The translations under genes were made by a program, and so were the position numbers. The notes below the pieces were generated by a model. That model saw nothing but the letters and a program-made list of their open reading frames with translations. It was not told the DNA's origin and did not search any database. DNA of 64,000 nucleotides, from NCBI GenBank assembly GCA_020632665.1, contig JACKFC010000017.1, forward strand, positions 40,423 to 104,422, read 5' to 3'. The first letter of the stretch is position 1. Every line of letters starts with the position of its first letter. This DNA is from Deltaproteobacteria bacterium (lineage in GTDB: Bacteria > Myxococcota_A > UBA9042). Shown here piece by piece: positions 6,603-64,000 of this stretch.

Positions 6603-9600
6603 ATGACCTTCTCCAAGCGTTTGTTTGCCCCCGCTCGCCTCGCGCGCTTCGGCCCGCTCTGGGCGGCCGCGCTGCTCGCGACCTCGGGCTGCGTCCCCGG
6701 TGCCACCGACGTCCCGGATTGGAACAAGGGCTCGGTCGGAGGCGGCGGCGCCGTCTGCGGCAACGGCAGCTGTGAGGCCGGCGAGACCGAGAATTCCTGC
6801 TCGGTCGACTGTACTGGAGTCTCCGCCGAGTGCGGCAACGGCAAATGCGAGCCCGGCGAAAGCGCGACGACCTGCAAGACCGATTGCGCGGTCGGCGGCA
6901 AGGTCTGCGGCGACGGAACCTGCGAGGGCGAAGAGACCTTCGTCTCCTGCCCGTCGGACTGCAAGCCGAAGTGCAAAGACCCGATTGTCGACTGCGGCGA
7001 GCACGCCAACTCCTGCAAGAAGTACGTCTGCGGGCAGAACGGTGAGTGCGAAGAGGCCAAGCTCGACGACAACACGCCCTGCGACGACGGCAACAAATGC
7101 ACCACCGAGGAGCGCTGCGAGAACGGCGAGTGCAAGGGCGGCAAGGAGCCGGATTGCGACGACGGCGACGCCTGCACGGCCGATGATTGCGACGCCGCGA
7201 ACGGCACCTGCACCAACGTCGCCGTGGCAGACGGCACCACGTGCCCGGCCGGCGGGCCCTGCGAGGGCAACAACCAATGCCAAGCCGGCCAGTGCAAGCC
7301 GACGGTCTGGAAATGCGAGTGCGACGCGAGCAAGCCCAACGACGACGCACAATACGGCTGCGCGAAGAAGAGCCCGGCGAATAAGTGCAACGGCGTCTCG
7401 ACCTGCGTCATCAACGACGACAGCAAGAAGCACGAGTGCGTCATCCCCGAGAGCACCAAGGTCACCTGTGACAGCAGCCTCGACACCGACTGCAGCACCC
7501 ACGTCTGCAATCCGCAGAAGGGCGCTTGCGAGTTCAAGGCCAAGCCGAACAACACGCTCTGCGACGACGGCAGCAACTGCACCAGCGGCGACACCTGCTT
7601 CGGCGGCGAATGCATCCCCGGCACGATGATCTGCGAGTGCGATATCGTGAACTTCAAGTCGCAGTGCGAGAAGAAGTACCAGGGCACCGCGGGGCCTTGC
7701 TCCGGACAATTCTATTGCGCCAACCCCGCCGCCGGCCCCTATGCCGCTGGCGCGACCTCGGAAGAGAAGGCGGCCAAGACGCACTGCGAGATCAACCCCG
7801 CCACCGTCATCAATTGCGAGAGCAAGGACGACACGGCCTGCTCGGTCAACACCTGCGTGGTCGACGGCAACGACGGCGGCTGCAAGATGGTGCCGGAGAA
7901 GGTCGGCAAGCTCTGCGACGACGGCGCCGAGTGCACCCCGAACTCGGCCTGCAACGCGGCTGGGCTCTGCTCGCCGGCGCTCTCCGACTCGCCGCCGTGC
8001 GATGAAAAGGGCCAGTGCTCCAAGGCCGGCACCGTCTGCCAGGACGGCTTCTGCGTCACCAATACCTGCGTCTGCCAGGAGGACGCCGACTGCGCCGCGA
8101 AGGACGACGGTGACCTCTGCAACGGCACCATGTTCTGCAACCAAGCGACCGGCGCTTGCGAGCTGAACAAAGCGACCATCGTCAACTGCGCGAGCTTGAG
8201 CGACACCGCTTGCGTGGTGAATATCTGCTACCCGAAGCTCGGCGTGTGCAAGCTGACGCCGCGTGAGAACGTGTTCAAGGAGACGATCACCGACCCGAAG
8301 ACGCAGGCGGTGAAGGTCTCGGTCAAGCCCTACCCGGTGAAGAAGGTCGACGTCTTCTGCGACGACGGCAACACCTGCACCCCGGTCGACGAATGCGACA
8401 AGGGCGTCTGCGTCTCCGACGACACCAATACCTGCGGCTGCCAGAAGGACAGCGACTGCGCCGGCCAGGAAGATGGCAACGTCTGCAACGGCACGATGTA
8501 TTGCGACAAACTCGCGTCCGGCGGACCCAAGTGCAAAGTCAACCCGGCGACGGTGGTCACCTGCATCGGCGTCGACGACACCGTCTGCGCGCAGAATGTC
8601 TGTGATCCGAAGACCGGTTCCTGCAAGGTCACGCCGGTCAAGGGCACGGTCCTCTGTGACGACGGCAACCCCTGTACACCGAACGACTTCTGCAACGCCA
8701 AGGGGCAGTGCAGCCCAGTCGGCGCAGACGCCAAGGCGTGCGGCGCCGGCGGCAGCTGCCCGATCGGCTATTCCTGCTTCGACGGCAAGTGTGCGACCAA
8801 CGTCTGCCAATGCAGCCAGGACAGCGACTGCGCCAGCAAGGAAGACGGCAACGTCTGCAACGGCACGCTCTACTGCGACAAGGCCACCGGCGCCTGCAAG
8901 GTCAACCCCGCCACCATCGTCAGCTGCAGCGACACCGAGGATTCGACCTGCTTGGCCAACCAATGCAACAAGGCGACCGGCGCCTGCGCGATGACGCCGA
9001 TCAACAACAACAAGCTCTGCGACGACGGCAATCCGTGCTCGGCGACGCCAATTTGCGAGAACGGTGTCTGCAAGGCCGAGACCGAGATCTGCGTCTGCAC
9101 CACCGACGCCGACTGCGCGCCGCTGCAGAGCAAGAACCTCTGCGCCGGCACGCTCTACTGCAAGAAGGGTGCGACCGCCGAGCAGAACACCTGCGCCGTC
9201 AATCCGGGGTCCGTCACGGTGTGTCCGTCCGGCGACGACACGGCCTGCATGCGCAACCAATGCGACGCGAAGACCGGAAAATGCGCCATGGTCAACAAGC
9301 CGGACAACGTCGTACTCTGCGACGACGGCAACCCCTGCACCAGCGGTGATAGCTGCGTCGCCGGTGCGTGCGCGGCTGGCACCAATATCTGCGAGTGCGC
9401 CACCGACGCCGATTGCGCTTCAAAGGATGACGGCAACGCCTGCAACGGCACGCTCTTCTGCGACAAGACGGGCGCGACCAATGTCTGCAAGACCAAGCCC
9501 GGCTCGATCCCGACCTGCAACCCGACCGCGACGGGCAGCTGCTTGGTCGAGAAGTGCATCCCGGCGACCGGCAAATGCGAGAAGATCAGCGCCTCGATCT

Positions 9601-10535
9601 GCAACGACGGCAACAGCTGCACGGTCGACTACTGCGATCTCGGCACCGACAAATGCGCGGTGAAGTCCGTTCCGGATGGCTCGGGTTGTGCCAGCCTCGG
9701 CAACTCCGGTGTCTGCGTCGCGACGTCCGCCTCCGCCTCGGACTGCAGCGTGCAGCCGCAGGCGGAGATGGTCTTCGTGCCGAAGGGCGACTTCCAGCAA
9801 GGCTGCAGCGCCACCGAGGGCGGAGCCTGCCAAGCGGCCGAGCTGCCGCAACACGAGGTCAAGCTCAGCGGCCACTGGATGGACCGCTTCGAGGTGTCCG
9901 TCGCGCGCTACTCTGCCTGCGTCGTCGCCGGTGTCTGCAAGGCCCCCGCGATGACCGGCACCTCCTGCAACTACGGCGACACCTCCAAGCTGCAGCAGCC
10001 CGTCAACTGCGTCAGCCACGCCGAGGCGGTCGCATATTGCACGTGGTATGGCGAAAATAGCGCGGCCGGCAAGAAGACCGGTCGCTTGCCGACCGAGGCC
10101 GAGTGGGAGCGCGCCGCGCGCGGTGGTTGCGAGAACTTCAGCGACTGCAAGACCGAGACGTCGACCTACGTCTGGGGAGACGCGCCGACGCCGAGCTGCG
10201 CGATGGCGATCATGAACGACGGCGGTGGCAAGGGTTGCGACGGCACCGCACCCGCGGATATCGCGTCCAAGCCGGATACGGATCGCAGCGTCTACGACGT
10301 CTACGATCTCGCCGGAAACCTCTCGGAGTGGGTCCAGGACACGTTCTCTGCCAGCTACTACGGAACGCTCGCGAACCCGGCCACCGACCCGGTGAACAGC
10401 GCCGCGGGCAGCACCAAGACCGTTCGCGGCGGCAGCTACGCCAGCACCAAGGCGACCGACCTGCGTGCGGCGGCGCGTGCGTCGGCGAGCGCCGCGTCGG
10501 CCTCTATCGGCTTCCGTTGCGTGATCGTGCCGTAG
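6603..10535 (+). CDS. Giant lipoprotein, 1310 aa: about 20 Myxococcus-type Cys-rich repeats plus a C-terminal formylglycine-generating-enzyme/sulfatase-modifying (FGE-sulfatase) domain
   Basis: Lipobox-like ATSGC. Reiterated CDDGNxCTxxDxCxxGxC modules. The C-terminus reads RLPTEAEWERAARGG...YVWGD...GNLSEWVQD...RGGSY...FRCV, which matches the FGE-sulfatase fold. Confidence 0.85.
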   Translation: MTFSKRLFAPARLARFGPLWAAALLATSGCVPGATDVPDWNKGSVGGGGAVCGNGSCEAGETENSCSVDCTGVSAECGNGKCEPGESATTCKTDCAVGGKVCGDGTCEGEETFVSCPSDCKPKCKDPIVDCGEHANSCKKYVCGQNGECEEAKLDDNTPCDDGNKCTTEERCENGECKGGKEPDCDDGDACTADDCDAANGTCTNVAVADGTTCPAGGPCEGNNQCQAGQCKPTVWKCECDASKPNDDAQYGCAKKSPANKCNGVSTCVINDDSKKHECVIPESTKVTCDSSLDTDCSTHVCNPQKGACEFKAKPNNTLCDDGSNCTSGDTCFGGECIPGTMICECDIVNFKSQCEKKYQGTAGPCSGQFYCANPAAGPYAAGATSEEKAAKTHCEINPATVINCESKDDTACSVNTCVVDGNDGGCKMVPEKVGKLCDDGAECTPNSACNAAGLCSPALSDSPPCDEKGQCSKAGTVCQDGFCVTNTCVCQEDADCAAKDDGDLCNGTMFCNQATGACELNKATIVNCASLSDTACVVNICYPKLGVCKLTPRENVFKETITDPKTQAVKVSVKPYPVKKVDVFCDDGNTCTPVDECDKGVCVSDDTNTCGCQKDSDCAGQEDGNVCNGTMYCDKLASGGPKCKVNPATVVTCIGVDDTVCAQNVCDPKTGSCKVTPVKGTVLCDDGNPCTPNDFCNAKGQCSPVGADAKACGAGGSCPIGYSCFDGKCATNVCQCSQDSDCASKEDGNVCNGTLYCDKATGACKVNPATIVSCSDTEDSTCLANQCNKATGACAMTPINNNKLCDDGNPCSATPICENGVCKAETEICVCTTDADCAPLQSKNLCAGTLYCKKGATAEQNTCAVNPGSVTVCPSGDDTACMRNQCDAKTGKCAMVNKPDNVVLCDDGNPCTSGDSCVAGACAAGTNICECATDADCASKDDGNACNGTLFCDKTGATNVCKTKPGSIPTCNPTATGSCLVEKCIPATGKCEKISASICNDGNSCTVDYCDLGTDKCAVKSVPDGSGCASLGNSGVCVATSASASDCSVQPQAEMVFVPKGDFQQGCSATEGGACQAAELPQHEVKLSGHWMDRFEVSVARYSACVVAGVCKAPAMTGTSCNYGDTSKLQQPVNCVSHAEAVAYCTWYGENSAAGKKTGRLPTEAEWERAARGGCENFSDCKTETSTYVWGDAPTPSCAMAIMNDGGGKGCDGTAPADIASKPDTDRSVYDVYDLAGNLSEWVQDTFSASYYGTLANPATDPVNSAAGSTKTVRGGSYASTKATDLRAAARASASAASASIGFRCVIVP

Positions 10536-10575: not shown

Positions 10576-13500
10576 ATGAACGCGCACGTTCGCTTGCAGG
10601 CCCGCGGCTCGACCCGCGTCGCCCTCTTCGTCGCGGCGCTCACGCTCCTCTCCGCCACCGACGCCTGGGCCGCCTTCTGCACCGGCAAGCAGAACGGCCT
10701 TTGGTGCGACGGCGACAAGCTCGTCTACTGCAGCAACGGCAACGTCAGCAGCAGCCAGACGTGCAGCAACGGCTGCCAATCGATGCCGCCCGGTACGCCC
10801 GACCAGTGCAAGGCGGCGACCGGCTTCTGCGCCGGCAAGGCCAGCGGCTATTGGTGCGACGGCAGCAAGCTGGTGCTGTGCAAATCCGGCAACATCAGCA
10901 GCAGCCAGAGCTGTCCGAACGGCTGCCAGTCGATGCCCTCGGGCACCGACGACAAGTGCAAGGAAGCGACCAATTTCTGCACTGGCAAGGCGAGTGGTCA
11001 GTGGTGCGACGGCAGCAAGTTGGTCCTTTGCAAATCGGGCAACATCAGCAGCAGCCAGAACTGTCCGAACGGCTGCCAGTCGATGCCCTCGGGCACCGAC
11101 GACAAGTGCAAGGAAGCGACCAATTTCTGCACCGGCAAGGCGAGCGGTCAGTGGTGCGACGGCAGCAAGTTGGTCCTTTGTAAGTCGGGCAACATCAGCA
11201 GCAGCCAGAACTGTCCGAACGGCTGCCAGTCGATGCCCTCGGGCACCGACGACAAGTGCAAGGAAGCGACGAATTTCTGCACCGGCAAGGCCAGCGGTCA
11301 GTGGTGCGACGGCAGCAAGTTGGTGCTGTGCAAATCCGGCAGCATCGCGAGCAGCCAGAATTGCCCGAACGGCTGCCAATCCAATCCCGCCGGGACCGAC
11401 GACACCTGCAAGGCGGCGACTTCCTTCTGCACCGGCAAGCAGAACGGCGCTTGGTGCGACGGCGACAAGTTGGTCCAATGCCAGAACGGCGCTGTCAGCA
11501 GCAGCCAGACCTGCGCCAACGGCTGCCAATCGATGCCGGTCGGCGTCCCCGATCAGTGCAAAGCGACCGGCGGCACGGGCTTCTGCGCCGGCAAGCAGAA
11601 CGGCCTCTGGTGCGACGGCGACGCGCTGGTCAACTGCCAGAACAACAGCGTCGCCAGCAGCCAGACCTGCAGCAACGGCTGCCAATCCATGCCGGTCGGC
11701 GTCGCCGATCAATGCGCTCCGAGCTCCGGTGGCGGCGGCGGCACTGGCGGCAAGTTGGAGCTCTGCAATCCCTTCAACCCCGCCAAAGCCGTGACCTGCG
11801 GCTTCGGCTGCTACAGCGGCCACAAGGGCAGCGACTACGCCTGCGGCGACGGCACGCCGCTCTACGCTCCGACGAACGGCACCGTCACCAAGGTCGTCAA
11901 CAGCTACAACGGGCAGACCTGCTCGCCGGACTTCGGCAACCTCATCAAGATCGCGACGGGCCCCTACGAGATCATCCTCGCCCACATGCGCAAGGACATC
12001 CTGGTCGGCGCGGGTGAGATCCAAGCCGGCACGCCGATCGGCTATGCCTCCAATACCGGCTACACCCTCACGCAGAAGAACGGCACCTGGGTCTGCCAAC
12101 AGGGCGGCGGCCACCACCTGCACCTCGAGGTCCGCAAGAACGGCGTCGCGGTCGACGCCTACGGCGGTGAGGTCGTCTGGAAGAACTGCGGTGACATCGG
12201 CAACGGCGGCGGCGGCGGGACCACGACTTTCTGTACCGGCAAGCAAAACGGCCTGTGGTGCGACGGCAGCGCGCTGGTCGACTGCAAGGACGGCGCGGTG
12301 GCGAGTAGCCAAACCTGCAGCAACGGCTGCGAGTCGATGCCGGTCGGCGTGCCGGATCAGTGCAAATCCGGCGGCGGCACCGGCTTCTGCAGCGGCAAGC
12401 AGAACGGCGCCTGGTGCGATGGCGACAAGCTCGTGACCTGCAGCGGCGGTTCGATCAGCGCCAGCGAGACCTGCGCCGACGGCTGCGAGTCGATGCCGGT
12501 CGGTGTCCCCGACCAATGCAAGGCCAAGCCGGTGACAGGGCCGTGCGAGGGCGTGCAAAACGCCGCGCTCTGCCACCAGGACGCCGTCGTGATCTGCGTC
12601 GCGGGGGCCGTGCAGCAGACCATCACCTGCCAGTTCGGATGCGTCGACAAGGCCGGTGTCGTCCACTGCAACGAGCCCGCCGCACCCGAGCCATGCGCCG
12701 GCAAGGGCGACGGCGCGAGCTGCGAAGGCGACGTGCTCCGCCAATGCCAATCCGGCAAGACCGCGAGCGCCACGCCCTGTGCCTTCGGCTGCGGCGTGGT
12801 CGGCGGCAATGCGCTCTGCCTGGCCAAGCCCGCACCGGCCGATCCCTGCGCCGGCCTCGCCGACGGCGGCCATTGCGAAGCGGCTTCGCTGCGGACCTGC
12901 CAATCCGGGCAAACCGTCGGCGCCATCACCTGCAACTTCGGCTGTGCCGGAGCGCCAGGGCAGGGCGCCTGCGCGCTCCCCGGCGGCCAAGGGCCGTGCC
13001 AGGGCAAGCCGGACGGTTGGCATTGCGACGGCAGCAAGCGGCTGCGCTGTGCGGCCGGCGCGCTCGCCGAACAAGAGCTCTGCGCCTTCGGCTGCGGCAC
13101 CTTCGCCGGACAGGTCGGCTGCCTCGGCGTCGAAGGCGCAGCGTGCGCGGCCAAGGTCGATGGCGGCGTCTGCCAGGGCGAGCTCCTGCTCGGCTGTGCC
13201 GCGGGACAGGTGCAATCGGCCACCCTTTGCATGCAAGGCTGTGTCGCCGACGGTGCGGCACATTGCGCTGCGGCCGCGGGCGTCTGTGCCGATAAGGTCG
13301 ACGGCGCCTGGTGCGACGCCGGCGCCCTGGTGCACTGCCTGAGCCAGTCCGAAGTCAGCGTCGAGATCTGCAAATTCGGCTGCCTACCGACCCCCGGACC
13401 GGTCGCCGACGTCTGCGCTTCGGCGAAAGACGCGAGCTGCTTCGGCAAGGCCGACGGCACGTGGTGCGACGCCGGGGCCAAGATCGTCTGCAGCGGCGGC

Positions 13501-14649
13501 GTCGAGACCGAACGGGTCGCCTGCGCCCTGGGCTGCCAGGGGCCTGCGGGCCAGGCGAGCTGCTCCGCTGCGGCGGCGTCGAGTTGCGCCGAGCTCGAAG
13601 ACGGGACGCATTGCGCGGGATCCGCCGTGGTCGCTTGCGTCTCCGGCGAGACCACGCTGGTCGCGCCTTGCGTCAACGGCTGCGAGGTCGACCCCGTGCT
13701 CGGGCCGCGCTGCATCAAGGCCGAAGCCGCGGGCTCGGCGATCGCCGTCACCGTCGACGAGGCCGGCTGCGCCCAGGTCGTCGGCTCACTGCTCCTCGGT
13801 GACGTCGCGCACCAGAGCCAGCTCGGCTCCGACGTCGCCATCGGCGCCTGCTCCGACCGTACGATCGCCAGCCACGGCGCGCTCATCACCGCGCTCTCGA
13901 CGGCCTACGCCGCGTTGGGCGCGCCACGAGAGGCGCTCGGCGTGGTCGGCAACACACCGCCGCTGGAGAACCTCTGGCGCAACGAGAACGACGGTTACGC
14001 CGCCTGTGCCGAAGCCGGTGTGTGCTGCGCGCGATGGGATCGCAACCCGGATCCGGTCGCCTTCGACCTCGGCAGCGGCTTCGACGGGGCCTGCCTGCCG
14101 CCTGAGTTGGCCCTGCGCGTCGCCGCGTCGCTGGCCGCCGGTCGCCCCGTGGTCGCCGGCATCCACCCGATCGGCAACCCGCCCGGCGCGCACTTCGTGA
14201 CGATCGTCGGCGTCGGCGAAGGCGGCTGGCAGGTCCTCGACCCGAAGGGAGACGCCGCCCCGGTCGCGCTCGCCGCCATCGCCGCCGTCGAACACGTCCT
14301 CGATTTCGTCGCGATCCCGCGCCTGGACGGAGCCCCGAACGCGGCGTTGTCGCCCAGCGGCGCCGGCGGCCCGCTCCCCGGCGGACCAGGGCGGAACCAT
14401 CCGTCGAGTGGCGCCGACGCGGGCGGCGGCGCGACGGGCGACGCGACCGGCGACGCGACCGGCACGATGGGCGGCGACGCCGGGCTCGACGCGGCTTCGG
14501 ACGGTGCTTGGCAACCGGCGGCCGCACCGAGCGGCTGCAGCGCCTCTCCGGTCCGGGGACGCCTGACGACCGCGCCCTGGGCCTGGCTGACGACGTTGAT
14601 CGCCGCGGCGTGGGCCCTTTGTTTCGCGTTGCGCCGCCGCTCGACTTGA
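10576..14649 (+). CDS. Giant surface protein, 1357 aa: signal peptide, seven 50-aa Cys repeats, M23 (LytM) metallopeptidase domain, two further repeat families, a possible papain-like (C39-like) domain, and MYXO-CTERM
   Basis: Signal peptide LFVAALTLLSATDAWA. M23 motifs HKGSDYA and GGHHLHLEV. C-terminal GCSASPVRGRLTTAPWAWLTTLIAAAWALCFALRRRST fits the MYXO-CTERM pattern (Cys motif, TM helix, Arg tail). The possible papain-like segment is GCAQVVGSLLLG...AHFVTIVGVGEGGWQVLDP. Confidence 0.85.
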   Translation: MNAHVRLQARGSTRVALFVAALTLLSATDAWAAFCTGKQNGLWCDGDKLVYCSNGNVSSSQTCSNGCQSMPPGTPDQCKAATGFCAGKASGYWCDGSKLVLCKSGNISSSQSCPNGCQSMPSGTDDKCKEATNFCTGKASGQWCDGSKLVLCKSGNISSSQNCPNGCQSMPSGTDDKCKEATNFCTGKASGQWCDGSKLVLCKSGNISSSQNCPNGCQSMPSGTDDKCKEATNFCTGKASGQWCDGSKLVLCKSGSIASSQNCPNGCQSNPAGTDDTCKAATSFCTGKQNGAWCDGDKLVQCQNGAVSSSQTCANGCQSMPVGVPDQCKATGGTGFCAGKQNGLWCDGDALVNCQNNSVASSQTCSNGCQSMPVGVADQCAPSSGGGGGTGGKLELCNPFNPAKAVTCGFGCYSGHKGSDYACGDGTPLYAPTNGTVTKVVNSYNGQTCSPDFGNLIKIATGPYEIILAHMRKDILVGAGEIQAGTPIGYASNTGYTLTQKNGTWVCQQGGGHHLHLEVRKNGVAVDAYGGEVVWKNCGDIGNGGGGGTTTFCTGKQNGLWCDGSALVDCKDGAVASSQTCSNGCESMPVGVPDQCKSGGGTGFCSGKQNGAWCDGDKLVTCSGGSISASETCADGCESMPVGVPDQCKAKPVTGPCEGVQNAALCHQDAVVICVAGAVQQTITCQFGCVDKAGVVHCNEPAAPEPCAGKGDGASCEGDVLRQCQSGKTASATPCAFGCGVVGGNALCLAKPAPADPCAGLADGGHCEAASLRTCQSGQTVGAITCNFGCAGAPGQGACALPGGQGPCQGKPDGWHCDGSKRLRCAAGALAEQELCAFGCGTFAGQVGCLGVEGAACAAKVDGGVCQGELLLGCAAGQVQSATLCMQGCVADGAAHCAAAAGVCADKVDGAWCDAGALVHCLSQSEVSVEICKFGCLPTPGPVADVCASAKDASCFGKADGTWCDAGAKIVCSGGVETERVACALGCQGPAGQASCSAAAASSCAELEDGTHCAGSAVVACVSGETTLVAPCVNGCEVDPVLGPRCIKAEAAGSAIAVTVDEAGCAQVVGSLLLGDVAHQSQLGSDVAIGACSDRTIASHGALITALSTAYAALGAPREALGVVGNTPPLENLWRNENDGYAACAEAGVCCARWDRNPDPVAFDLGSGFDGACLPPELALRVAASLAAGRPVVAGIHPIGNPPGAHFVTIVGVGEGGWQVLDPKGDAAPVALAAIAAVEHVLDFVAIPRLDGAPNAALSPSGAGGPLPGGPGRNHPSSGADAGGGATGDATGDATGTMGGDAGLDAASDGAWQPAAAPSGCSASPVRGRLTTAPWAWLTTLIAAAWALCFALRRRST
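10675..11574 (+). repeat. Six in-frame tandem 150-bp coding repeats; the three copies at 10825-11274 are about 90-97% identical
   Basis: The TTCTGC (FC) codon recurs every 150 bp at 10675, 10825, 10975, 11125, 11275 and 11425. The copies at 10975 and 11125 differ by about 5 nt. Confidence 0.8.
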
Positions 14650-14682: not shown

Positions 14683-14694
14683 AGGAGGTCGCGC

Positions 14695-15219
14695 ATGGCC
14701 GAGCACGTCGAACACCTCAGCACCACCGCCGTCCCGCAGCGCAAGCGCGCCTCGGTGGCGCCGCTGGTCATCGCGGTCGCCGTCGCGGCGATCGGCTTCT
14801 TCGTGATCACCTCGAGCACTTCGGGTGGCTCGGGGATGTTCAACTACGAGTTGGCGGATCTGGTGCAGAAGAAGGCCGAGCTCGCGGGCAAGGACATCAA
14901 GGTCTCGGGCCGCATCGCCAAGGGCAGCGTCCGCGGCGAGCCGGCGAGCGCGTCGTTCCGCTTCGAGCTCGAAGACGACGGCGGCAACCGCGTCTCGGTC
15001 GCCTATACCAAGCTGCTGCCCGATCCCTTCGAAGAGGGCCGGGACGCCATCGTCCAGGGCCGCATGGAGGGCGACACCGTCGTGGCGTCGAGCCTCACGG
15101 TGAAGTGCCCGAGCCGCTACGCCGATACCGAGAATCTCAGCGAGGCGGAGAAGCAACGCTACTACGAGAGCGACTACCGCAAGCACGCCGAGATGGCGAA
15201 AGAAGCCCCGAAACAATAG
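14695..15219 (+). CDS. ccmE: CcmE-family haem chaperone, CxxxY variant, with an N-terminal membrane anchor
   Basis: The OB-fold core VSGRIAKGSVRG...SFRFEL.DDGGNRVSVAYTKLLPDPFEEGRDAIVQGRME aligns with CcmE VxYxGxLPDxFxEGxxVVQG. Where canonical CcmE has LAKHDENYTP, this protein has VKCPSRYAD, so the haem-binding His is replaced by Cys. Confidence 0.8.
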   Translation: MAEHVEHLSTTAVPQRKRASVAPLVIAVAVAAIGFFVITSSTSGGSGMFNYELADLVQKKAELAGKDIKVSGRIAKGSVRGEPASASFRFELEDDGGNRVSVAYTKLLPDPFEEGRDAIVQGRMEGDTVVASSLTVKCPSRYADTENLSEAEKQRYYESDYRKHAEMAKEAPKQ

Positions 15220-15220
15220 C

Positions 15221-15691
15221 TCAGGGGGCGGTCTCTTCGGCAGCGGCGCAATCACCGGCATCGAGGACCTGCAGCGCTTCCTGCCGCTCGATCCGGACCA
15301 AGCCGTAGCCGTAGAGCGGCTCGCTGCCGCCGATGTCGAATGCGCAGCGGATGCCGACGCGGGTCACGTCTGGCCCCAGCTCCAGGTGGATCGGCATCGT
15401 CGCTTCCGGAGCGCTGCCACGCGCGAAGATCCGCTCGACGACGAAGGGCGTCTCGGCGGTCGGGACGCTCAGGCGCAGCCCGATCAGGCGGTCGCGTCCG
15501 AGCGTCGCGTCGCCTTCGTGCCGCTCGAGATGGGTCAGCAGCAGCGACGCCTTCGCGCCCACCACGTCGCGCCGGACCGAGGCCCACGCCGCGAGCAGCC
15601 CGGCGATCAGGCCGACGATGCCCAGCGGCCGTCGCCACCGCTCTGGGATCAGTCGAGGGATTGCCACGCCCGTTGCTCCTTGGCGGCCCAC
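15221..15691 (-). CDS. Membrane-anchored (single N-terminal TM) hypothetical protein, last gene of the LonN-ABC-ABC operon
   Basis: GTG start. RRPLGIVGLIAGLLAAWASV TM helix followed by about 115 aa. GC3 is high. The 5' end overlaps the upstream ABC gene by 43 nt. Confidence 0.45.
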   Translation of the reverse strand: MGRQGATGVAIPRLIPERWRRPLGIVGLIAGLLAAWASVRRDVVGAKASLLLTHLERHEGDATLGRDRLIGLRLSVPTAETPFVVERIFARGSAPEATMPIHLELGPDVTRVGIRCAFDIGGSEPLYGYGLVRIERQEALQVLDAGDCAAAEETAP

Positions 15692-16338
15692 GCCGAGGCC
15701 GGCTCCTCCGCCACGATCCGCCCTCCTTCGAGGTGGGCGACGCGGGCGCCGAGGGCGACCGCGAACGCGGGGTCGTGGCTGACGACCAGCGCCCCACGCG
15801 GGGCGGCGCAGAGCGTACGCAGCAGCGCCGCGAGCGCAACCGCCGTGGCCTCGTCCAAGGCGCTCGACGGCTCGTCGAGGAGCAGCAAGCGGGCGCCGCC
15901 GATGACGGCCCGGGCCAAGGCGACGCGCTGCTGCTGACCACCGGAGAGCGCCCGCGGTAGCCGCCGGGCCTCGGCCTCGGTCAGGCCCACGTCGACGAGC
16001 GCTGCGCTGGCCCGCACCCGGGCGGTCGCGCCGTCGACGCCCGCGACCCGCAGCGGATCAGCGACGGCGTCGCGCACCGGCCACCCGGCCGGCAACGTCG
16101 CGCCGGCGTCTTGCCCAAGCCAAGCCACACCCGCCCAGCGCTCGCGTGGCGGACGTTCCTCCCCGTCGAGCCGAACCACGCCACGTGCGTGCACCAAGCC
16201 GAGGACGACGTCGATCAGCGTGCTCTTGCCGGCGCCGCTCGGCCCGGCGAGGACGACGATCTCGCCCGGTGCGACCGTGAGCGTAACGTCGGTCAACGTC
16301 CGCGCCGAGATGCCGGAGAGCTCGAGCAAGGCGCTCAT
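15649..16338 (-). CDS. ABC transporter ATP-binding protein, 229 aa
   Basis: Walker A GPSGAGKST, signature LSGGQQQRVALARA, Walker B LLLLDEPSSALD, H-loop VSHD. The ATG shares an ATGA overlap with the upstream ABC gene's stop. Confidence 0.85.
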   Translation of the reverse strand: MSALLELSGISARTLTDVTLTVAPGEIVVLAGPSGAGKSTLIDVVLGLVHARGVVRLDGEERPPRERWAGVAWLGQDAGATLPAGWPVRDAVADPLRVAGVDGATARVRASAALVDVGLTEAEARRLPRALSGGQQQRVALARAVIGGARLLLLDEPSSALDEATAVALAALLRTLCAAPRGALVVSHDPAFAVALGARVAHLEGGRIVAEEPASAWAAKEQRAWQSLD

Positions 16339-17009
16339 CCGACCGCCTCCAGCCGGCCGCCAGGGTGCAAGCGCAGCACCCGATCGGCGACCGCGGTCGC
16401 GAACGCGAGGTCGTGCGTGACCAGCAGGATGCCGAATCGGTGCCGCTCGCGGATGCGCCGCAGCAGGCGAGCGACGCGGCGGGAGGCCTCACCGTCCAGG
16501 GCGCTGGTTGGCTCGTCCAGGAGCAGGAGCGTCGGCGCGACGGCGAGCGCCAGCGCAAGGACCAACCGTTGTCGCTGGCCGCCAGAGAGTTGGTGCGGAC
16601 GCCGGGATCGAAGCTCCGCGTGCTGCAGTCCGACCTCGGCGAACGCGTCGAGGCAATGTGCCAGCGGCAATCCGTGGATGCGTGCGTGCTCGCGGAGGGC
16701 GCCGTCGACCGTCTGCAGCGGGTCGAGCGCGCCGCTGCAGTCCTGCGGCAACAACGCGACGCTCCGGCCGCGCATCCGGCGATGCCAGGACGCGCCACCG
16801 ATCTGCAGTCGCGCGATGCGGACCTCTGCGGCGCTGCCGAGCAGGTCGAGGATGGCGCTGAGGAGGGTCGATTTGCCGACGCCGGAAGGGCCGACCACGG
16901 CGACCGACTCGCCCATGCCGACCTGCAGGTGCAACCCCTCCGCGCCGTAGAGGGCGTGGCCCGCGCGCTGTACGCAGAGACCATCCAGGACCAGGGCGGG
17001 GGCGCTCAG
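16335..17009 (-). CDS. ABC transporter ATP-binding protein; start codon unresolved
   Basis: GPSGVGKST, LSGGQRQRLVLALA, LLLLDEPTSALD and VTHD motifs. There is no ATG/GTG/TTG between the upstream LonN stop (17006) and the A-loop. The only in-frame candidate is CTG at 17009. Everything upstream in the 390-aa track ORF is Arg/Pro-rich and non-coding in appearance. Confidence 0.7.
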   Translation of the reverse strand: MSAPALVLDGLCVQRAGHALYGAEGLHLQVGMGESVAVVGPSGVGKSTLLSAILDLLGSAAEVRIARLQIGGASWHRRMRGRSVALLPQDCSGALDPLQTVDGALREHARIHGLPLAHCLDAFAEVGLQHAELRSRRPHQLSGGQRQRLVLALALAVAPTLLLLDEPTSALDGEASRRVARLLRRIRERHRFGILLVTHDLAFATAVADRVLRLHPGGRLEAVG

Positions 17010-17689
17010 TTCAGCAGCCCGACCTCGCCCTCGTGGCCCACGGCTTCGAGCTCGGTCGTGCGCAGCAGCAGATCGCTCGCGATATCGACCAAGCGCTCGG
17101 CGCGTTCCTTCGCCGACGGGGTCTCCAGCAGCGCCTGCCGCACGGTGGGATCGAAGGCGAGAACGGTCGCGACCCGGTGGGTCAGGATTCCGGCCTTCTT
17201 GCTCGAGGAGAGGGCCTGCGCGAGCAGAGAGGCATGATCGCCGCGCTGCATCATCAGGCCGCGCACGGTGCTGCTCAGCCGCTCGATGGCGGCTTCGAGC
17301 TCGACCGGGTCGTCGACGATCTCGTCGATCACTTCGACCTCGCCGGTCCGGTAGGGCTGGAGTTGATGGATCGTGCGGACCCGAACCCGGGCCAGGCAAT
17401 GCACGTAGAGGTTGTAGCGGCCGTCGGCGAGGCGCTCTTCGTTGACGATTCGGCAGAGCGAGCCCACCTCGTGCGCCGGCGGCGAGCCGTAGTAGCTCTC
17501 TTCCCACCCGGGCTTGAGCCCGACCAGCACCAACAGGCGATTGGTCGCGAGGGCGTCGCTGACCAACATCCGGTAGCGCGGCTCGAAGATGTGCAGGCGC
17601 TGGGTGGTCTGCGGGAAGATGACGAAGGTCGGCAGCGGGAAGACGGGCAGCGACTCGTAGCGCTCGTCGACGATGGCGATCGATTGCAT
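17006..17689 (-). CDS. Stand-alone Lon protease N-terminal (substrate-binding) domain protein
   Basis: LPVFPLPTFVIFPQTTQRLHIFEPRYRML is the LON-N signature. Start taken at Met25 (MQSIAIVDE), which has GAGG upstream. The preceding 24 codons are Arg/Pro-rich. Confidence 0.75.
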   Translation of the reverse strand: MQSIAIVDERYESLPVFPLPTFVIFPQTTQRLHIFEPRYRMLVSDALATNRLLVLVGLKPGWEESYYGSPPAHEVGSLCRIVNEERLADGRYNLYVHCLARVRVRTIHQLQPYRTGEVEVIDEIVDDPVELEAAIERLSSTVRGLMMQRGDHASLLAQALSSSKKAGILTHRVATVLAFDPTVRQALLETPSAKERAERLVDIASDLLLRTTELEAVGHEGEVGLLN

Positions 17690-17726
17690 GGCGGGCCTCG
17701 GCTGCGCCCCAGAGAATACGGGCGCG

Positions 17727-17761
17727 CGGTGAGATCCTACGGGATCTCGCCGCCTCGGCAA
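17727..17761 (-). promoter_or_regulatory. Candidate sigma70-type promoter (TTGCCG-16 nt-TAGGAT, reading on the minus strand) with an overlapping perfect palindrome GAGATCC-TACG-GGATCTC (17731-17748)
   Basis: Read from the sequence. It lies in the 85-nt gap between the adenosine-deaminase-like gene and the LonN gene. Confidence 0.3.
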
Positions 17762-59004: not shown

Positions 59005-59161
59005 CAACGTCGACCTCCGGGCTGGGCGTGGCTGCGCCGCGCGTGCAGGCAGCAGCGCGGCGCGCGCGGAATCTTGCATGCTCGGGTGCAAAGCGAAAGG
59101 CAGGGGGTGATTGGAAGCCCTGGCCCGGCTCGCGTACGCTGGTCGCGGCGGAGGAGGATGC

Positions 59162-59569
59162 GTGGGCGATCAGGTCGACAATCCGGGGAAGAAGCGGCGG
59201 CGCTTCGACACCGCGTGGGTCGGCTCGGCGCAACACTTCGTCTGGCTGGAGTGGGTGGTTCGCGCGACGCTGGTGCTCAACGTCCTCGACGCCATCCTGA
59301 CCATCTTCTGGATCTCCTCGCACCAGGCGATCGAGGCGAACCCTTTGCTCGCCGAGTTGGCGCACCAGCACCCCTTCGGCTTCGTGATCGTGAAGATGTC
59401 GCTGGTCTCGCTCGGGACCTTGTTGCTCTGGCGCCTGCGCAAGCGACCGCTGGCGGTGATCGCGATCTTCGCTGCCTTCCTGGCCTACTACTTCTTGCTG
59501 ATCTACCACCTCGAGGCGCTGAATCCGCGTCTCTTCACGCGGGTCCTCGCGCTGATCGGGGCGCGCTAG
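59162..59569 (+). CDS. Small membrane protein, DUF5658-like (EANPLL motif)
   Basis: GTG with GGAGGAGG 5 nt upstream. About three TM segments. AIEANPLLAEL. Confidence 0.5.
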   Translation: MGDQVDNPGKKRRRFDTAWVGSAQHFVWLEWVVRATLVLNVLDAILTIFWISSHQAIEANPLLAELAHQHPFGFVIVKMSLVSLGTLLLWRLRKRPLAVIAIFAAFLAYYFLLIYHLEALNPRLFTRVLALIGAR

Positions 59570-60018
59570 CGGGGCAAGGTCGCCGGCGCCGGGCGGACCA
59601 TCCAGATATGCGGAATCTCGGCCTCATCGTATTCTTCTCCGACCGCGGTCCAGCCCATGCGGGTGTACCAGGTGCGGAGGTAGGCTTGCGCCGAGAGCGC
59701 CGCCGGTCGGTCGCCGATGACGGCGTGCACCGCCTCCATGAGCTGCGAGCCGACGCCGCCGCGCTGCAGGTCGCGCGCCACCGCCACACGGCCGACCTTG
59801 ACCGGATCCGAGTCGAGAAAGACGCGCGCGGTCGCGACGACGCGGCCCTGCTCATTCGTACCCCAGACGTGGACGCACTCCGGGTCGCGGCCGTCGACTT
59901 CGGCCTCGCAGGTGATCTTCTGCCCGACCACGAAGACCTCGTTGCGCAGCCACAGCATATCGTGCAGCTCGCGCAGGCCGAGGTCGGCGAAGGGCGCGTG
60001 GCGAAACTCCAACTTCAT
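59566..60018 (-). CDS. GNAT acetyltransferase, ElaA-like
   Basis: Start at Met13. VFVVGQ...GRVVATARV...RGGVGSQLM. Confidence 0.7.
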   Translation of the reverse strand: MKLEFRHAPFADLGLRELHDMLWLRNEVFVVGQKITCEAEVDGRDPECVHVWGTNEQGRVVATARVFLDSDPVKVGRVAVARDLQRGGVGSQLMEAVHAVIGDRPAALSAQAYLRTWYTRMGWTAVGEEYDEAEIPHIWMVRPAPATLPR

Positions 60019-60047
60019 GGCCCACTCCAGCACGAGGAGGCCGCAGG

Positions 60048-60263
60048 ATGACATGGATCGGGTGGGTCGTCGCCCTCTCCAGCCTGAGCCTGGTGCTGCG
60101 CCTGACGGTGCGGTGGTGGAACCGGGTCGAGCGGATCCCGCCCGCCGCGCAGCGCCCGCCGCCCGAGCCCTGGCCGGAGGACGAGCCCGAAGATCCCGAC
60201 GCCGATTGGCCGCAACAGCCGAGCGATTTTCTTGCGGAGTCCGAGGATCGCGAGGGATCCTGA
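60048..60263 (+). CDS. Small membrane protein, 71 aa, with an acidic Pro-rich tail
   Basis: One TM segment WIGWVVALSSLSLVLRL. Immediately upstream of the TSP3 giant gene. Confidence 0.35.
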   Translation: MTWIGWVVALSSLSLVLRLTVRWWNRVERIPPAAQRPPPEPWPEDEPEDPDADWPQQPSDFLAESEDREGS

Positions 60264-60292
60264 ATCAGGTTCTACCGTCGCGGAGTTCGGAT

Positions 60293-63200
60293 ATGTCGAC
60301 AACCAGCCGCCTGGGCGCGTTCCTCTGTGCACTGTTGCTGCCGTCATTGGCGTTCGCCGTCGACTCCGACGCAGACGGCCTCGACGACGCCTGGGAGCTC
60401 TCCAACCTCGGCACGCTCGACAGCGGCCCGACCGACGATCCCGACGCGGACGGCCTCGACAACGCGGGCGAGCTCGAGGCCAAGACCCATCCGCTGGTCG
60501 CCGATACCGACGGCGACGGGCTCAGCGACGGCAAGGAGCTCGCGCCGGACAAAGCGGGCCAGAGCAGCGACCCGACCCGCGTCGACACCGACAAAGACGG
60601 CCTCTCGGACGGTGACGAGGTCCTGATCCACGGCAGTCATCCGGGCAAATCCGACACCGACGGCGACGGCCTGACCGACGGCGCCGAGGTGCTGCAGCAC
60701 AAGACCAGCCCCCTGCTCGCCGACACCGACGGCGGCCTCTCCGACGACGGCGTCGAGGTGCTCAAGGACAAGACCGACCCGACCAAGCCCGACGACGACC
60801 TCTACGACAGCGACGGCGACGGCCTCTCGGATTGGGTCGAGCTGAACCAGACCAAGACCAACCGCTTCCTCGCCGACACCGACGGCGACGGCTTGAGCGA
60901 CGGCGACGAGGTCGACAAATACGGCACCCCGCCGCTCGACGCCGACGCCGACGACGACGGCCTCTCCGACGGTGAGGAGCTGCTCGTGGTCGGCACCGAT
61001 CCCTTCGTCGCCGATACCGACAAGGACGGCCTGGTCGACGGCGTCGAGCATTATACCCACCAGACCGATCCGCTCCGCGTCGACTCGGATTGGGACACCC
61101 TCGGCGACGGCGACGAGGTGCTCAAATACGGCAGCAACCCGCTCGCCGCGGACAGCGACGGCGGCGGCGTCTTCGACCCGGTCGAGGTCGCGGACAAGAC
61201 CGACCCGGCCGATCCGAACGACGACGTCGGCCAGGATCCCGACGGCGACGGCCTCTCCACCAGCTACGAGGTCCTGGTCAGCAAGACCGCGCCGGACGAC
61301 GCCGACAGCGACGGCGACGGCCTCCCCGACGGGCAAGAGGTCTTCCCGCTCGACGATCGCCTCGTCACCCCGCCGCTCGACGCGGATGCGGACGACGACG
61401 GCCTGCTCGACGGCAACGAGGGGGGCATCAGCAAGGACGGCAGCCCGGGCGCGATGCAGAACGGCAAGCCCTCGCCGCTGGTCGCCGATTCGGACGTCGA
61501 CGGCCTCCCAGACGGGCTCGAGCTCGGCCTCGCCGCGCCGCAGAAGAGCGCCAAGGACCCGGACGCGACCGCCGGCAAGAGCTTCCTCGCCGACTCCGAC
61601 CCGAGCAGCAAGACCAGCCCGGTCAAGGCAGACACCGACGGCGATGGGCTGCCCGACGGCATCGAAGACGCCAACAAGAACGGCGCCTGGGACGGACAGC
61701 CGGGTGGCAAGGAGACCGATCCGACGGTGGCCGATACCGACGGCGACGGCATGGACGACGGCTGGGAGAGCCAATACGCCGGCACGGCGGGGCAGGGCAC
61801 CCCGCTCGACCCCCTCGACGGCGCCGACGGACCGCTCGATCCCGACCTCGACGGCCTGACCAACCTGCAGGAATACGAGAACCTCTGGCCCTCCGCCGAC
61901 GGCACGCTGGTCCGCCAGAGCACGCACCCGCGCAAGGCCGATACCGACGACGACGGCCTGCTCGACGGCGTCGAGGTCAAGGCCAGCTACGGTGGCTCGC
62001 CCGCCGGCGTGCCCGGCAGCAACCCGAACGACGCCGATACCGATGGCGACGGCCTGCACGACGGCGTCGAAGACCAGGACCACGACGGCAAGGTCGGCAA
62101 GATCGCCTCGACCGGCCTGCTCGAGCCCAACCCGAAGATCCCCGACAGCGACGGCGACGGCCTCAGCGACGGCGCCGAGGACAAGAACCACGACGGCTTC
62201 TGGGACAAGAGCACGGGCGAGACGGCGGCGACCATCGCCGACAGCGACGGGGATTTCCTCGCCGACGGCGCCGAGGTGCAGACCTACGGCACCGACCCGA
62301 ACGCCGCCGATACCGATGGAGACGGCCTGCCCGACGCGCTCGAGGTCGGTAAGCAGGGCGACCTCGACCCTTCGAGCAAGACCAACCCGAACAAGGCCGA
62401 TACCGACGGCGATGGCCTCTCGGACGGGGTCGAGGACGCCAACCACGACGGCAGCCGCGGGCCGAGCGAGACCGATCCGCTCGCCGCCGACACCGACGGC
62501 GACGGCCTGCCCGACGGCCTCGAAGACAAGAACGACAACGCCAAAGTCGACGCCGGCGAGACCGACCCGCTCGACGCCGACTCCGACGACGACGGGCTCT
62601 ACGACGGGGCTGAAGACAAGAACAAGAGCGGCAGCAAGGACCCCGACGAGACCGATCCGCTGCTCGCCGACACCGACGGCGGCGGCAGCAGCGACGGCGA
62701 CGAGAAGAAGGTCGGCACCAACCCGCTGCTGGCGAAGGACGATTACGCCGGTGATGCCGACGGCGACGGCATCCTGACCGGCGTCGAAGTCGGCCTCGGC
62801 ACCAACCCCCAGTCGGCCGATAGCGACGGCGACGGCATCGGCGACGCGGTCGAGACGGCGTCTGCAGCCACCCCGACCGGTGGCGCCGCGATCGACACCG
62901 ACGGCGACGGCACCATCGACGCGCTCGACGCCGACAGCGACGGCGACGGCCTACCCGACGCGATCGAAGCGGGCGACGCCGACCTCGCGACTCCGGCGGC
63001 AGACAGCAACGCGGACGGCGTGGCCGACTACCGCTCGCTCGACTCCGACAGCGACGGCGTCGCCGACGAGGACGAGGCCGGCTACGGCACCTCGCCGACC
63101 AAGGCAGACACCGACGCCGACGGGCTGGGAGACGGCAAGGAGATCGATCTGGGCACCGATCCGACCTTCGGCGACTCCGACCACGACGGCCTGCCCGACG

Positions 63201-64000
63201 GCAGCGAGAGCCTGCAGGATCTCGACGGCGACGGCCTGATCGGCGCGCTCGACGTCGACTCCGACAACGACGGCATTCTCGACGGCACCGAGGCCGGCAT
63301 CACCGCGCCGCTGCCGGGGACCGACCTCGCTCGCGGCGCCTTCGTCGCCGACCAAGACCCCGGCACGACCACCAACCCGAACAGCGTCGACAGCGACGGC
63401 GACGGCATCCGCGACGGCGCCGAAGACGTCGACCACGACGGCAAGGTTCAGCCGGGCGAATCCGATCCGACCGACAAGAACGTCGCCGTGGCGCTCACCG
63501 ACTCCGATGTCGACGGCCTGCCCGACGCCGAGGAGGTCCACATCGGCAGCGATCCCTTCGACGCCGACACCGACGACGACGGCGTCCTCGACGCGGCGGA
63601 GTGGAATTTCTCCCACGACACCGACGGCGACGGCCTGCCCAACGCCATCGACCCCGACGGCGACAACGACGGCCTGCCGGACGGCCTCGAGCGCGGCCTG
63701 ACCGACGCGACCTCGGCCACCGACCGGATGCGCCACGCCTTCGTCGCCGACGCCGATCCGGCGAGCACGACCTCGCCGCTGCGCGCCGACAGCGACGGCG
63801 ACGGCATCTCCGACGGCTTCGAGGACGCCGATATGGACGGCAAGCCCGACGCCCCCGGGAGCGTCGCCGCCGATAGCGACGGCGACGGCCTGCCCGACGC
63901 CGCCGAGGCCCGGATCGGCAGCGATCCACTCGACGCCGACAGCGACGACGACGGCATCCCCGACGGCGCCGAGGACAACGCCCGCTTCGACGACGACGGC
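60293..64000 (+). CDS. Secreted giant protein made of thrombospondin type-3 (TSP3) calcium-binding repeats, 3' end outside the window (more than 1235 aa)
   Basis: Not in the ORF track because it has no stop in the window. The frame is open from the ATG at 60293 to the edge. Signal peptide MSTTSRLGAFLCALLLPSLAFA. More than 45 DxDxDGxxDxxE units (DTDGDGLSDG...). Confidence 0.85.
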   Translation, partial: MSTTSRLGAFLCALLLPSLAFAVDSDADGLDDAWELSNLGTLDSGPTDDPDADGLDNAGELEAKTHPLVADTDGDGLSDGKELAPDKAGQSSDPTRVDTDKDGLSDGDEVLIHGSHPGKSDTDGDGLTDGAEVLQHKTSPLLADTDGGLSDDGVEVLKDKTDPTKPDDDLYDSDGDGLSDWVELNQTKTNRFLADTDGDGLSDGDEVDKYGTPPLDADADDDGLSDGEELLVVGTDPFVADTDKDGLVDGVEHYTHQTDPLRVDSDWDTLGDGDEVLKYGSNPLAADSDGGGVFDPVEVADKTDPADPNDDVGQDPDGDGLSTSYEVLVSKTAPDDADSDGDGLPDGQEVFPLDDRLVTPPLDADADDDGLLDGNEGGISKDGSPGAMQNGKPSPLVADSDVDGLPDGLELGLAAPQKSAKDPDATAGKSFLADSDPSSKTSPVKADTDGDGLPDGIEDANKNGAWDGQPGGKETDPTVADTDGDGMDDGWESQYAGTAGQGTPLDPLDGADGPLDPDLDGLTNLQEYENLWPSADGTLVRQSTHPRKADTDDDGLLDGVEVKASYGGSPAGVPGSNPNDADTDGDGLHDGVEDQDHDGKVGKIASTGLLEPNPKIPDSDGDGLSDGAEDKNHDGFWDKSTGETAATIADSDGDFLADGAEVQTYGTDPNAADTDGDGLPDALEVGKQGDLDPSSKTNPNKADTDGDGLSDGVEDANHDGSRGPSETDPLAADTDGDGLPDGLEDKNDNAKVDAGETDPLDADSDDDGLYDGAEDKNKSGSKDPDETDPLLADTDGGGSSDGDEKKVGTNPLLAKDDYAGDADGDGILTGVEVGLGTNPQSADSDGDGIGDAVETASAATPTGGAAIDTDGDGTIDALDADSDGDGLPDAIEAGDADLATPAADSNADGVADYRSLDSDSDGVADEDEAGYGTSPTKADTDADGLGDGKEIDLGTDPTFGDSDHDGLPDGSESLQDLDGDGLIGALDVDSDNDGILDGTEAGITAPLPGTDLARGAFVADQDPGTTTNPNSVDSDGDGIRDGAEDVDHDGKVQPGESDPTDKNVAVALTDSDVDGLPDAEEVHIGSDPFDADTDDDGVLDAAEWNFSHDTDGDGLPNAIDPDGDNDGLPDGLERGLTDATSATDRMRHAFVADADPASTTSPLRADSDGDGISDGFEDADMDGKPDAPGSVAADSDGDGLPDAAEARIGSDPLDADSDDDGIPDGAEDNARFDDDG

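Follow-up and report, generated by a model that had tools for sequence, protein, structure and literature searches.

A solitary CxxxY-type ccmE in uncultured Myxococcota, probable haem chaperone of a dispersed variant System I

The closest described counterparts of the gene reported here are the CcmE proteins with a CxxxY motif known from Desulfovibrio and archaea, in which a Cys fills the role of the haem-binding His (PMC3884852 and PMC9084895). The variant System I (Ccm) of Desulfovibrio that contains such a CcmE was described by Goddard et al. 2010 (PMC2906280), and a Desulfovibrio CxxxY CcmE is available as PDB entry 2kct (Aramini et al. 2012; PMC3366507), both works being used here as cited in PMC3884852. 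In Methanosarcina acetivorans, according to PMC9084895, the CxxxY ccmE (MA4149) stands alone, ccmABC, ccmE and ccmF1F2 being more than 110 kb apart; the gene is essential for cytochrome c maturation and its Cys is needed for haem attachment. The solitary ccmE examined here comes from an uncultured, mostly freshwater Myxococcota lineage and very probably encodes a genuine periplasmic haem chaperone of the CxxxY type, belonging to a dispersed variant System I. The arrangement would thus be the bacterial counterpart of one already characterised in Methanosarcina.

The gene lies in a 64-kb stretch of DNA with a G+C content of 70% (the window, by which the whole stretch that was analysed is meant), and its product is confirmed as a membrane-anchored OB-fold protein of the CcmE family (Table 1). 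It matches the Pfam CcmE family PF03100 with 75.9 bits (E 3.4e-21, model positions 3-97 of 99), the gathering score of that family being 24.6 bits. An AlphaFold2 (AF2) model computed from 29 homologues (pLDDT 82) consists of a TM helix, preceded by a basic cytoplasmic tail (QRKRAS), a five-stranded barrel and a C-terminal helix. The four top PDB matches of this model in Foldseek are all CcmE structures (8ce8_E, 1lm0, 1j6q and 1sr3), with 2kct ranking 11th, and in sequence searches the CcmE proteins of Shewanella and E. coli come first among solved relatives, with that of D. vulgaris next. An earlier note on this DNA had recognized the OB-fold core as CcmE, and the agreement of sequence and fold matches, both led by solved CcmE structures, bears this out. 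The NCBIfam equivalog models for CcmE (PRK13254, PRK13165 and others), which we take to be built on His-type CcmE, were all missed, the best score being 56.4 bits against a cut-off of 126.

Table 1. Features of the ccmE locus, with coordinates in the window
Feature	Coordinates	Strand	Remarks
ccmE CDS, CxxxY variant	14695-15219	+	ATG start, 174 aa; PF03100 match, matches to PDB CcmE structures
N-terminal TM anchor, residues 22-44	14758-14826	+	AF2 helix; hydrophobic, conserved in alignment A1; E. coli CcmE anchor aligns
Periplasmic OB-fold beta-barrel, residues 49-136	14839-15102	+	AF2 pLDDT >90 over most of the domain
Motif C138-P-S-R-Y142	15106-15120	+	aligned to E. coli and Shewanella CcmE
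C-terminal tail, YYxxxYxKH (Y156, Y157, H164)	15121-15216	+	predicted helical; alignment A1
Perfect 8-bp GC stem, GGGCCGCC/GGCGGCCC, 6-nt loop	14661-14682	+	read from sequence
Shine-Dalgarno AGGAGG	14683-14688	+	read from sequence; 6 nt before ATG
Small convergent ORF	15221-15691	-	single TM; no Pfam or NCBIfam match
Two ABC ATPases, NikD/NikE-like	15649-16338; 16335-17021	-	below every NCBIfam cut-off
Convergent operon: LON substrate-binding-domain protein, ABC ATPase, ABC ATPase, small single-TM protein	15221-17761	-	
Cys-rich (Dicty_CTDC-like) protein, 1310 aa, C-terminal FGE-sulfatase domain	6603-10535	+	
Secreted Cys-rich protein, 1357 aa, M23 peptidase domain	10576-14649	+	

The haem-binding motif is where the window CcmE departs from the His-type (HxxxY) proteins. 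In phmmer and profile alignments to 1sr3, 8ce8_E and 1j6q, VKC138PSRY142 falls on AKH130DENY134 of E. coli. These alignments pair Cys138 (codon 15106-15108) with His130 and Tyr142 (codon 15118-15120) with Tyr134, which puts the Cys at the haem-binding position, as the earlier note had it in claiming that Cys replaces the haem-binding His; an alignment in which the Cys fell elsewhere, which that note had named as evidence against its reading, was not obtained. Since the protein has Cys for His and misses the equivalog cut-offs, it lies outside the HxxxY subfamily. Across the 29 diverse members of alignment A1 (45-74% identity), both LTVKCPSRY and LLPDPF-EGR are invariant, and the invariance of the former at such levels of identity indicates purifying selection on the haem site. 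With the family profile as query, HMMER found 2570 matches among 1.84 billion cluster representatives. Among the best 150 of these, every match that spans the site has the Cys, nearly always within K-C-P-S-K/R-Y; of 243 matches that were aligned, 222 have the Cys and 218 of these 222 a Tyr four residues further on, the other 21 showing a gap at the Cys and/or Tyr position. The D. vulgaris 2kct sequence ends in TKCP, and thus has the same KCP as the window CcmE. Judged by sequence, KCPS(K/R)Y is the usual hallmark of a large and already described CxxxY CcmE subfamily, and the assignment in the earlier note to the Desulfovibrio/archaeal CxxxY type stands on the KCP common to 2kct and on the KCPS(K/R)Y of the best 150 matches.

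Like its Desulfovibrio counterparts (D. desulfuricans; D. vulgaris, 2kct), the window CcmE has an OB-fold, a Cys in place of the His and a KCP after the last barrel strand; the 2kct construct does not include the N-terminal membrane anchor that a CcmE should have. Sequence similarity to 2kct is limited, the family profile scoring it at 31.8 bits, and, unlike Desulfovibrio CcmE, the proteins of the window clade end in a tail of about 30 residues with YYxxxYxKH. The Desulfovibrio gene, we presume, sits in a ccm gene cluster, whereas the one here is solitary. In the closest clustered relatives of the window gene, neither a separate ccmH nor a separate ccmG adjoins ccmF, a feature shared with the published Desulfovibrio system. 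The likeness to Methanosarcina lies in the CxxxY motif and in a ccmE encoded away from the other ccm genes. Methanosarcina is, however, an archaeon with a streamlined Ccm in which ccmABC stay together, whereas in this bacterial Myxococcota lineage ccmC is apart from ccmA and ccmB and is accompanied by two small downstream ORFs. With the HxxxY CcmE of E. coli and Shewanella (1sr3, 1j6q and chain E of 8ce8) the protein shares fold, topology and ligand positions at about 31% identity, but it differs from them in the Cys that replaces His130, in scoring under the equivalog cut-offs and in being encoded outside a ccmABCDEFGH operon.

The tail, for which AF2 predicts a helix (residues 150-170, pLDDT 60-78), has a His164 that is invariant in the 29 members of alignment A1. 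YYxxxYxKH (15160-15216, residues 156-174, being the part of the tail concerned) is common to nearby cluster-embedded relatives and missing in most CxxxY CcmE, in which the median tail length is 15 residues, against 34 here. The tail could be the source of an extra haem ligand.

No ccm, ccs or res gene was found by Pfam scans of about 40 ORFs in the whole window, and tblastn of the window with E. coli CcmA-H and a myxobacterial-type CcmA/B/C/F set returned generic ABC similarity only, in line with the statement in the earlier note that there are no other ccm genes nearby. A scan of the window proteins for CXXCH found none encoded, which is uninformative. The gene is equally isolated in its relatives. 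A word-indexed search retrieved 79 homologue clusters (49-98% identity), several of them labelled CcmE by NCBI/JGI and originating from MAGs of Myxococcales or Deltaproteobacteria, and a scan in which each GTDB species was represented by one genome retrieved 32 loci, all from uncultured Myxococcota-type MAGs and most of them titled Myxococcales or Myxococcota. Six (L009, L015, L017, L022, L028 and L035; 59-71% GC) are titled 'uncultured Enterobacteriaceae bacterium' or 'Klebsiella pneumoniae'; on a Myxococcota-type locus these look like wrong organism names. When the 10-kb flanks were searched by tblastn with the E. coli Ccm proteins and the myxobacterial-type set, CcmB, CcmC, CcmD, CcmF, CcmG and CcmH were found at none of the 32 GTDB loci, nor in the window, nor at the loci obtained by exact look-up.

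What surrounds ccmE is instead a conserved set of other genes. On the same strand, the upstream genes encode a Ser/Thr kinase and a TPR protein, together with one or two giant secreted proteins rich in Cys, of which one bears an FGE-sulfatase domain. Downstream and convergent are a small membrane protein, sometimes the ABC ATPase pair, and the LON substrate-binding-domain protein, followed past the LON-domain gene by adenosine deaminase, deoxynucleoside kinase and a GYF/zinc-ribbon protein. The flank order may thus be written STK-TPR-CysRich/FGE-ccmE, converging on LON_substr_bdg-A_deaminase-dNK-GYF, and its conservation in relatives points to vertical inheritance of a solitary ccmE rather than to a peculiarity of this window. 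The order from the kinase through the TPR gene and the FGE-domain gene (6603-10535 in the window) to ccmE is kept in many related MAGs.

In sister lineages, by contrast, the ccm genes are together. The CcmE of the nearest outgroup (P0081, 144 bits) is encoded in a cluster of the order ccmE-ccmF-X477-ccmA-ccmB-ccmC-s89-s55, in which ccmF encodes 1182 aa, X is a 477-aa ORF and two small ORFs are terminal. In at least 17 further metagenome loci, ccmE and ccmF are likewise accompanied by ccmA/B/C genes, and on many shorter metagenome contigs ccmE is directly 5' of ccmF. A conserved ORF of about 477 aa sits between ccmF and ccmA in the clustered variant systems, whose CcmF (L041:1288-6281 and L084-L092) measures about 1150-1200 aa; that of L041 has a Cys-rich C-terminal extension (CYCGC...CPLSC). 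A literature search on the organization of myxobacterial ccm genes gave nothing relevant.

Partners of the solitary ccmE were sought with the CcmC and CcmF of the P0081 cluster as queries. The CcmF query retrieved many Myxococcales MAG proteins of 873-910 aa (50-55% identity). In all three relatives' MAGs that were tested, an intact CcmF falls in the accession block of the solitary ccmE, an argument that assumes sequential numbering inside an assembly: MBM4344661 (CcmF) and MBM4341767 (CcmE) in VGRO01 differ by 2894, MSQ82301 and MSQ81810 in SHZD01 by 491, and MCO4761281 and MCO4763629 in JAGSHB01 by 2348, the two members of each pair having the identical organism label and being on different contigs. 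The VGRO01 CcmF was also found at 100% identity in the metagenome scan on contig Ga0194120_10005833, from the same Lake Tanganyika metagenome as Ga0194120_10000085, which carries CcmE. The link between CcmF and ccmE thus consists of accession closeness and one shared metagenome, no single listed assembly showing both, and the genome-level links come from relatives whose CcmE is 52-65% identical to that of the window. At the five loci nearest to the MAG CcmFs (L079-L083) ccmF is alone, and the solitary CcmFs keep the WWD motif together with His173, His261 and His303. The nearest tetranucleotide neighbours of the solitary ccmF contig L083 (70% GC) are the window and its closest relatives, L008-L010. 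At 873-910 aa, the solitary CcmFs of this clade fall short of the clustered ones in length.

A similar picture emerged for CcmC. In four separate Myxococcota lineages ccmC is alone and is followed by one or two small ORFs, and the solitary CcmCs have invariant His60, His184 and WWD residues. The small ORFs (L042-L073, 42-130 aa) show weak homology to the two ORFs, of 89 and 55 aa, located after ccmC in the complete cluster (L041:8721-9154), and may be CcmD analogues. One CcmC (P0325) and one solitary CcmE (P0068, GTDB locus L032, 52% identical to the window protein) are common to ERR4194711, ERR4194714, ERZ27313597 and ERZ18667851, four assemblies that probably derive from about two sequencing runs. 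The two genes match in composition (61.4% GC for the CcmC and 61.6% for the CcmE), and the nearest tetranucleotide neighbours of the P0325 locus are CcmE loci (0.012, against at least 0.019 for all others). P0325 and P0068 are assigned to different MAG bins (ERZ1426548/621 and ERZ1426842/825) and were not seen together in one bin or on one contig; the case for a single genome is good but not conclusive. Linking CcmC to the ccmE MAGs through NCBI accessions gave clusters that belong to other lineages (MBW, MGD, RLB and MDH) or have no accession, and contig look-ups for CcmC P0346 and P0274 likewise led to other lineages. A longest contig of 3041 bp common to the CcmE and CcmC tables is probably a coincidence and was left unused. 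Comparison of the ccmC or ccmF loci with the window by tblastx revealed no shared synteny.

In relatives with a solitary ccmE, the ccm genes elsewhere are therefore dispersed single loci, no complete cluster having been found among them, and break-up of an operon is the simplest account of the solitary gene. An ancestral ccmE-ccmF-X-ccmA-ccmB-ccmC operon, still intact in sister lineages, would have been broken up in the Myxococcota clade, leaving ccmE, ccmF and ccmC (with two small ORFs) each alone at a separate chromosomal site. By analogy with the CxxxY systems that have been studied, those of Desulfovibrio and Methanosarcina, CcmE would be anchored N-in/C-out through its one TM helix, CcmC would load haem onto Cys138 with Tyr142 as axial ligand, and holo-CcmE would pass the haem to the CcmF haem lyase for attachment to CXXCH apocytochromes. 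Haem binding, the partners encoded in the window's own genome, and CcmA and CcmB as members of the system are inferred only. The observation itself, namely an isolated CcmE-family gene of the CxxxY type in this setting, is confirmed in all its factual elements.

The earlier note had gone further in proposing either a haem chaperone that acts outside System I or a CcmE fold that has been co-opted for a different role. As an orphan, the protein might carry or scavenge haem for another acceptor or be a non-haem OB fold. A reader inclined to this will point to the lack of a ccm gene in the window or within 10 kb at any of 39 related loci, to the stable position of ccmE 3' of large secreted Cys-rich/FGE-sulfatase genes on the same strand, to a conserved C-terminal tail that is specific to the clade and to the fact that ccmA and ccmB are not among the ccm loci located in the clade. 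The haem-site motif, however, does not vary and is the same as in cluster-embedded CcmE, the tail motif too is common to cluster-embedded relatives, and the nearest outgroups possess the complete cluster. Moreover, MAGs with a solitary ccmE harbour an intact CcmF elsewhere (in three of three) and probably a CcmC, which co-occurs with CcmE and matches it in composition. We know of no role for CcmC besides loading CcmE, which also argues against a function outside System I. A solitary and yet functional CxxxY ccmE is, besides, documented in Methanosarcina. The proposal has thus fared badly, and we consider a role outside System I very unlikely. Solitude of a ccmE is no evidence of a new function, which is a caution for inference from operons; the locus is a small data point on operon fragmentation, of little import beyond annotation, and it raises no new mechanistic question. 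That something new should nevertheless be found within the dispersed System I, either haem loading that is independent of CcmAB or relies on the NikDE-like pair, or an extra client suggested by the position next to the Cys-rich/FGE genes, has to our mind only a slim chance.

The earlier note had described two ABC ATPases downstream on the opposite strand and had not counted them as ccm genes, correctly so, given that none of the 25 top NCBIfam matches shown for either is a CcmA model and that such similarity as there is in NCBIfam is of the NikD/NikE, CydD or FtsE type. As candidates for CcmA they were rejected, their similarity being generic and all their NCBIfam matches under cut-off. The pair is found in the window and at about eight of 39 related ccmE loci and is missing from most; being generic and present at only about a quarter of ccmE loci, these ATPases are therefore not regarded as CcmA substitutes. 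One may still imagine that the pair and the small membrane protein encoded on the opposite strand replace CcmAB in serving CcmE: the genes are directly downstream and convergent with ccmE in the window and in eight related loci, the ATPases are 30-35% identical to CcmA, and neither ccmA nor ccmB is among the ccm loci located elsewhere. But identities of 30-35% are generic for ABC ATPases, a CcmB-like permease is absent, there being no permease gene in the minus-strand operon at 15221-17761, and the pair belongs to that LON-headed operon, most ccmE loci of the clade doing without it. Replacement of CcmAB by the pair is accordingly hard to believe. The small ORF by itself was also considered as a Ccm partner and set aside; it has no family match and in L006 it accompanies the LON-domain gene rather than ccmE. 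Its stop codon and that of ccmE are 1 bp apart.

It is just as hard to credit that the window gene is a second, redundant or decaying ccmE paralogue left by operon rearrangement while a clustered ccmE does the work, since the CcmF loci of the clade (L079-L083), unlike those of the outgroups, have no adjacent ccmE, so that no clustered copy is evident, and the gene is an intact ORF with a good Shine-Dalgarno sequence, a third-position GC of 0.91 and an anchor, barrel and motif strongly conserved over 79 clusters and 32 species.

As to expression of the ccmE assigned here to a dispersed System I, high third-position GC is typical of expressed genes, and the AGGAGG site and the GC stem-loop mentioned in the earlier note can both be read in the sequence. 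AGGAGG stands at a distance of 6 nt from the start codon and the stem does have eight base pairs, but the predicted RNA fold is modestly better than that of shuffled sequences (z = -2.15) and there is no U-tract. GGAGG is kept in close relatives of the window ccmE. The stem, which comes after the stop codon (14649) of the upstream gene and before the ribosome-binding site and gave no terminator call, is probably an mRNA 3'-end or stability hairpin of that upstream gene. In L008, the closest relative, a comparable hairpin precedes ccmE; in L009 the hairpin is a different one, and none is recognizable in relatives beyond these. As a notable regulatory element it was discarded, in view of its weak z score, the missing U-tract and its conservation in the nearest relatives only.

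Two further features of the window may be recorded. Within the gene for the M23 peptidase-domain protein, a 150-bp tandem array (10674-11693) comprises 6.8 copies with a match of 81-84%, each unit corresponding to one Cys-rich module of about 50 aa. At the far end of the window, an ORF on the forward strand (59684-64000) encodes more than 1438 aa with many bacterial TSP3 repeats and runs off the window; it is preceded by a gene for a DUF5658 protein (59111-59569), and a DUF5658 gene is also found near ccmE in L006.
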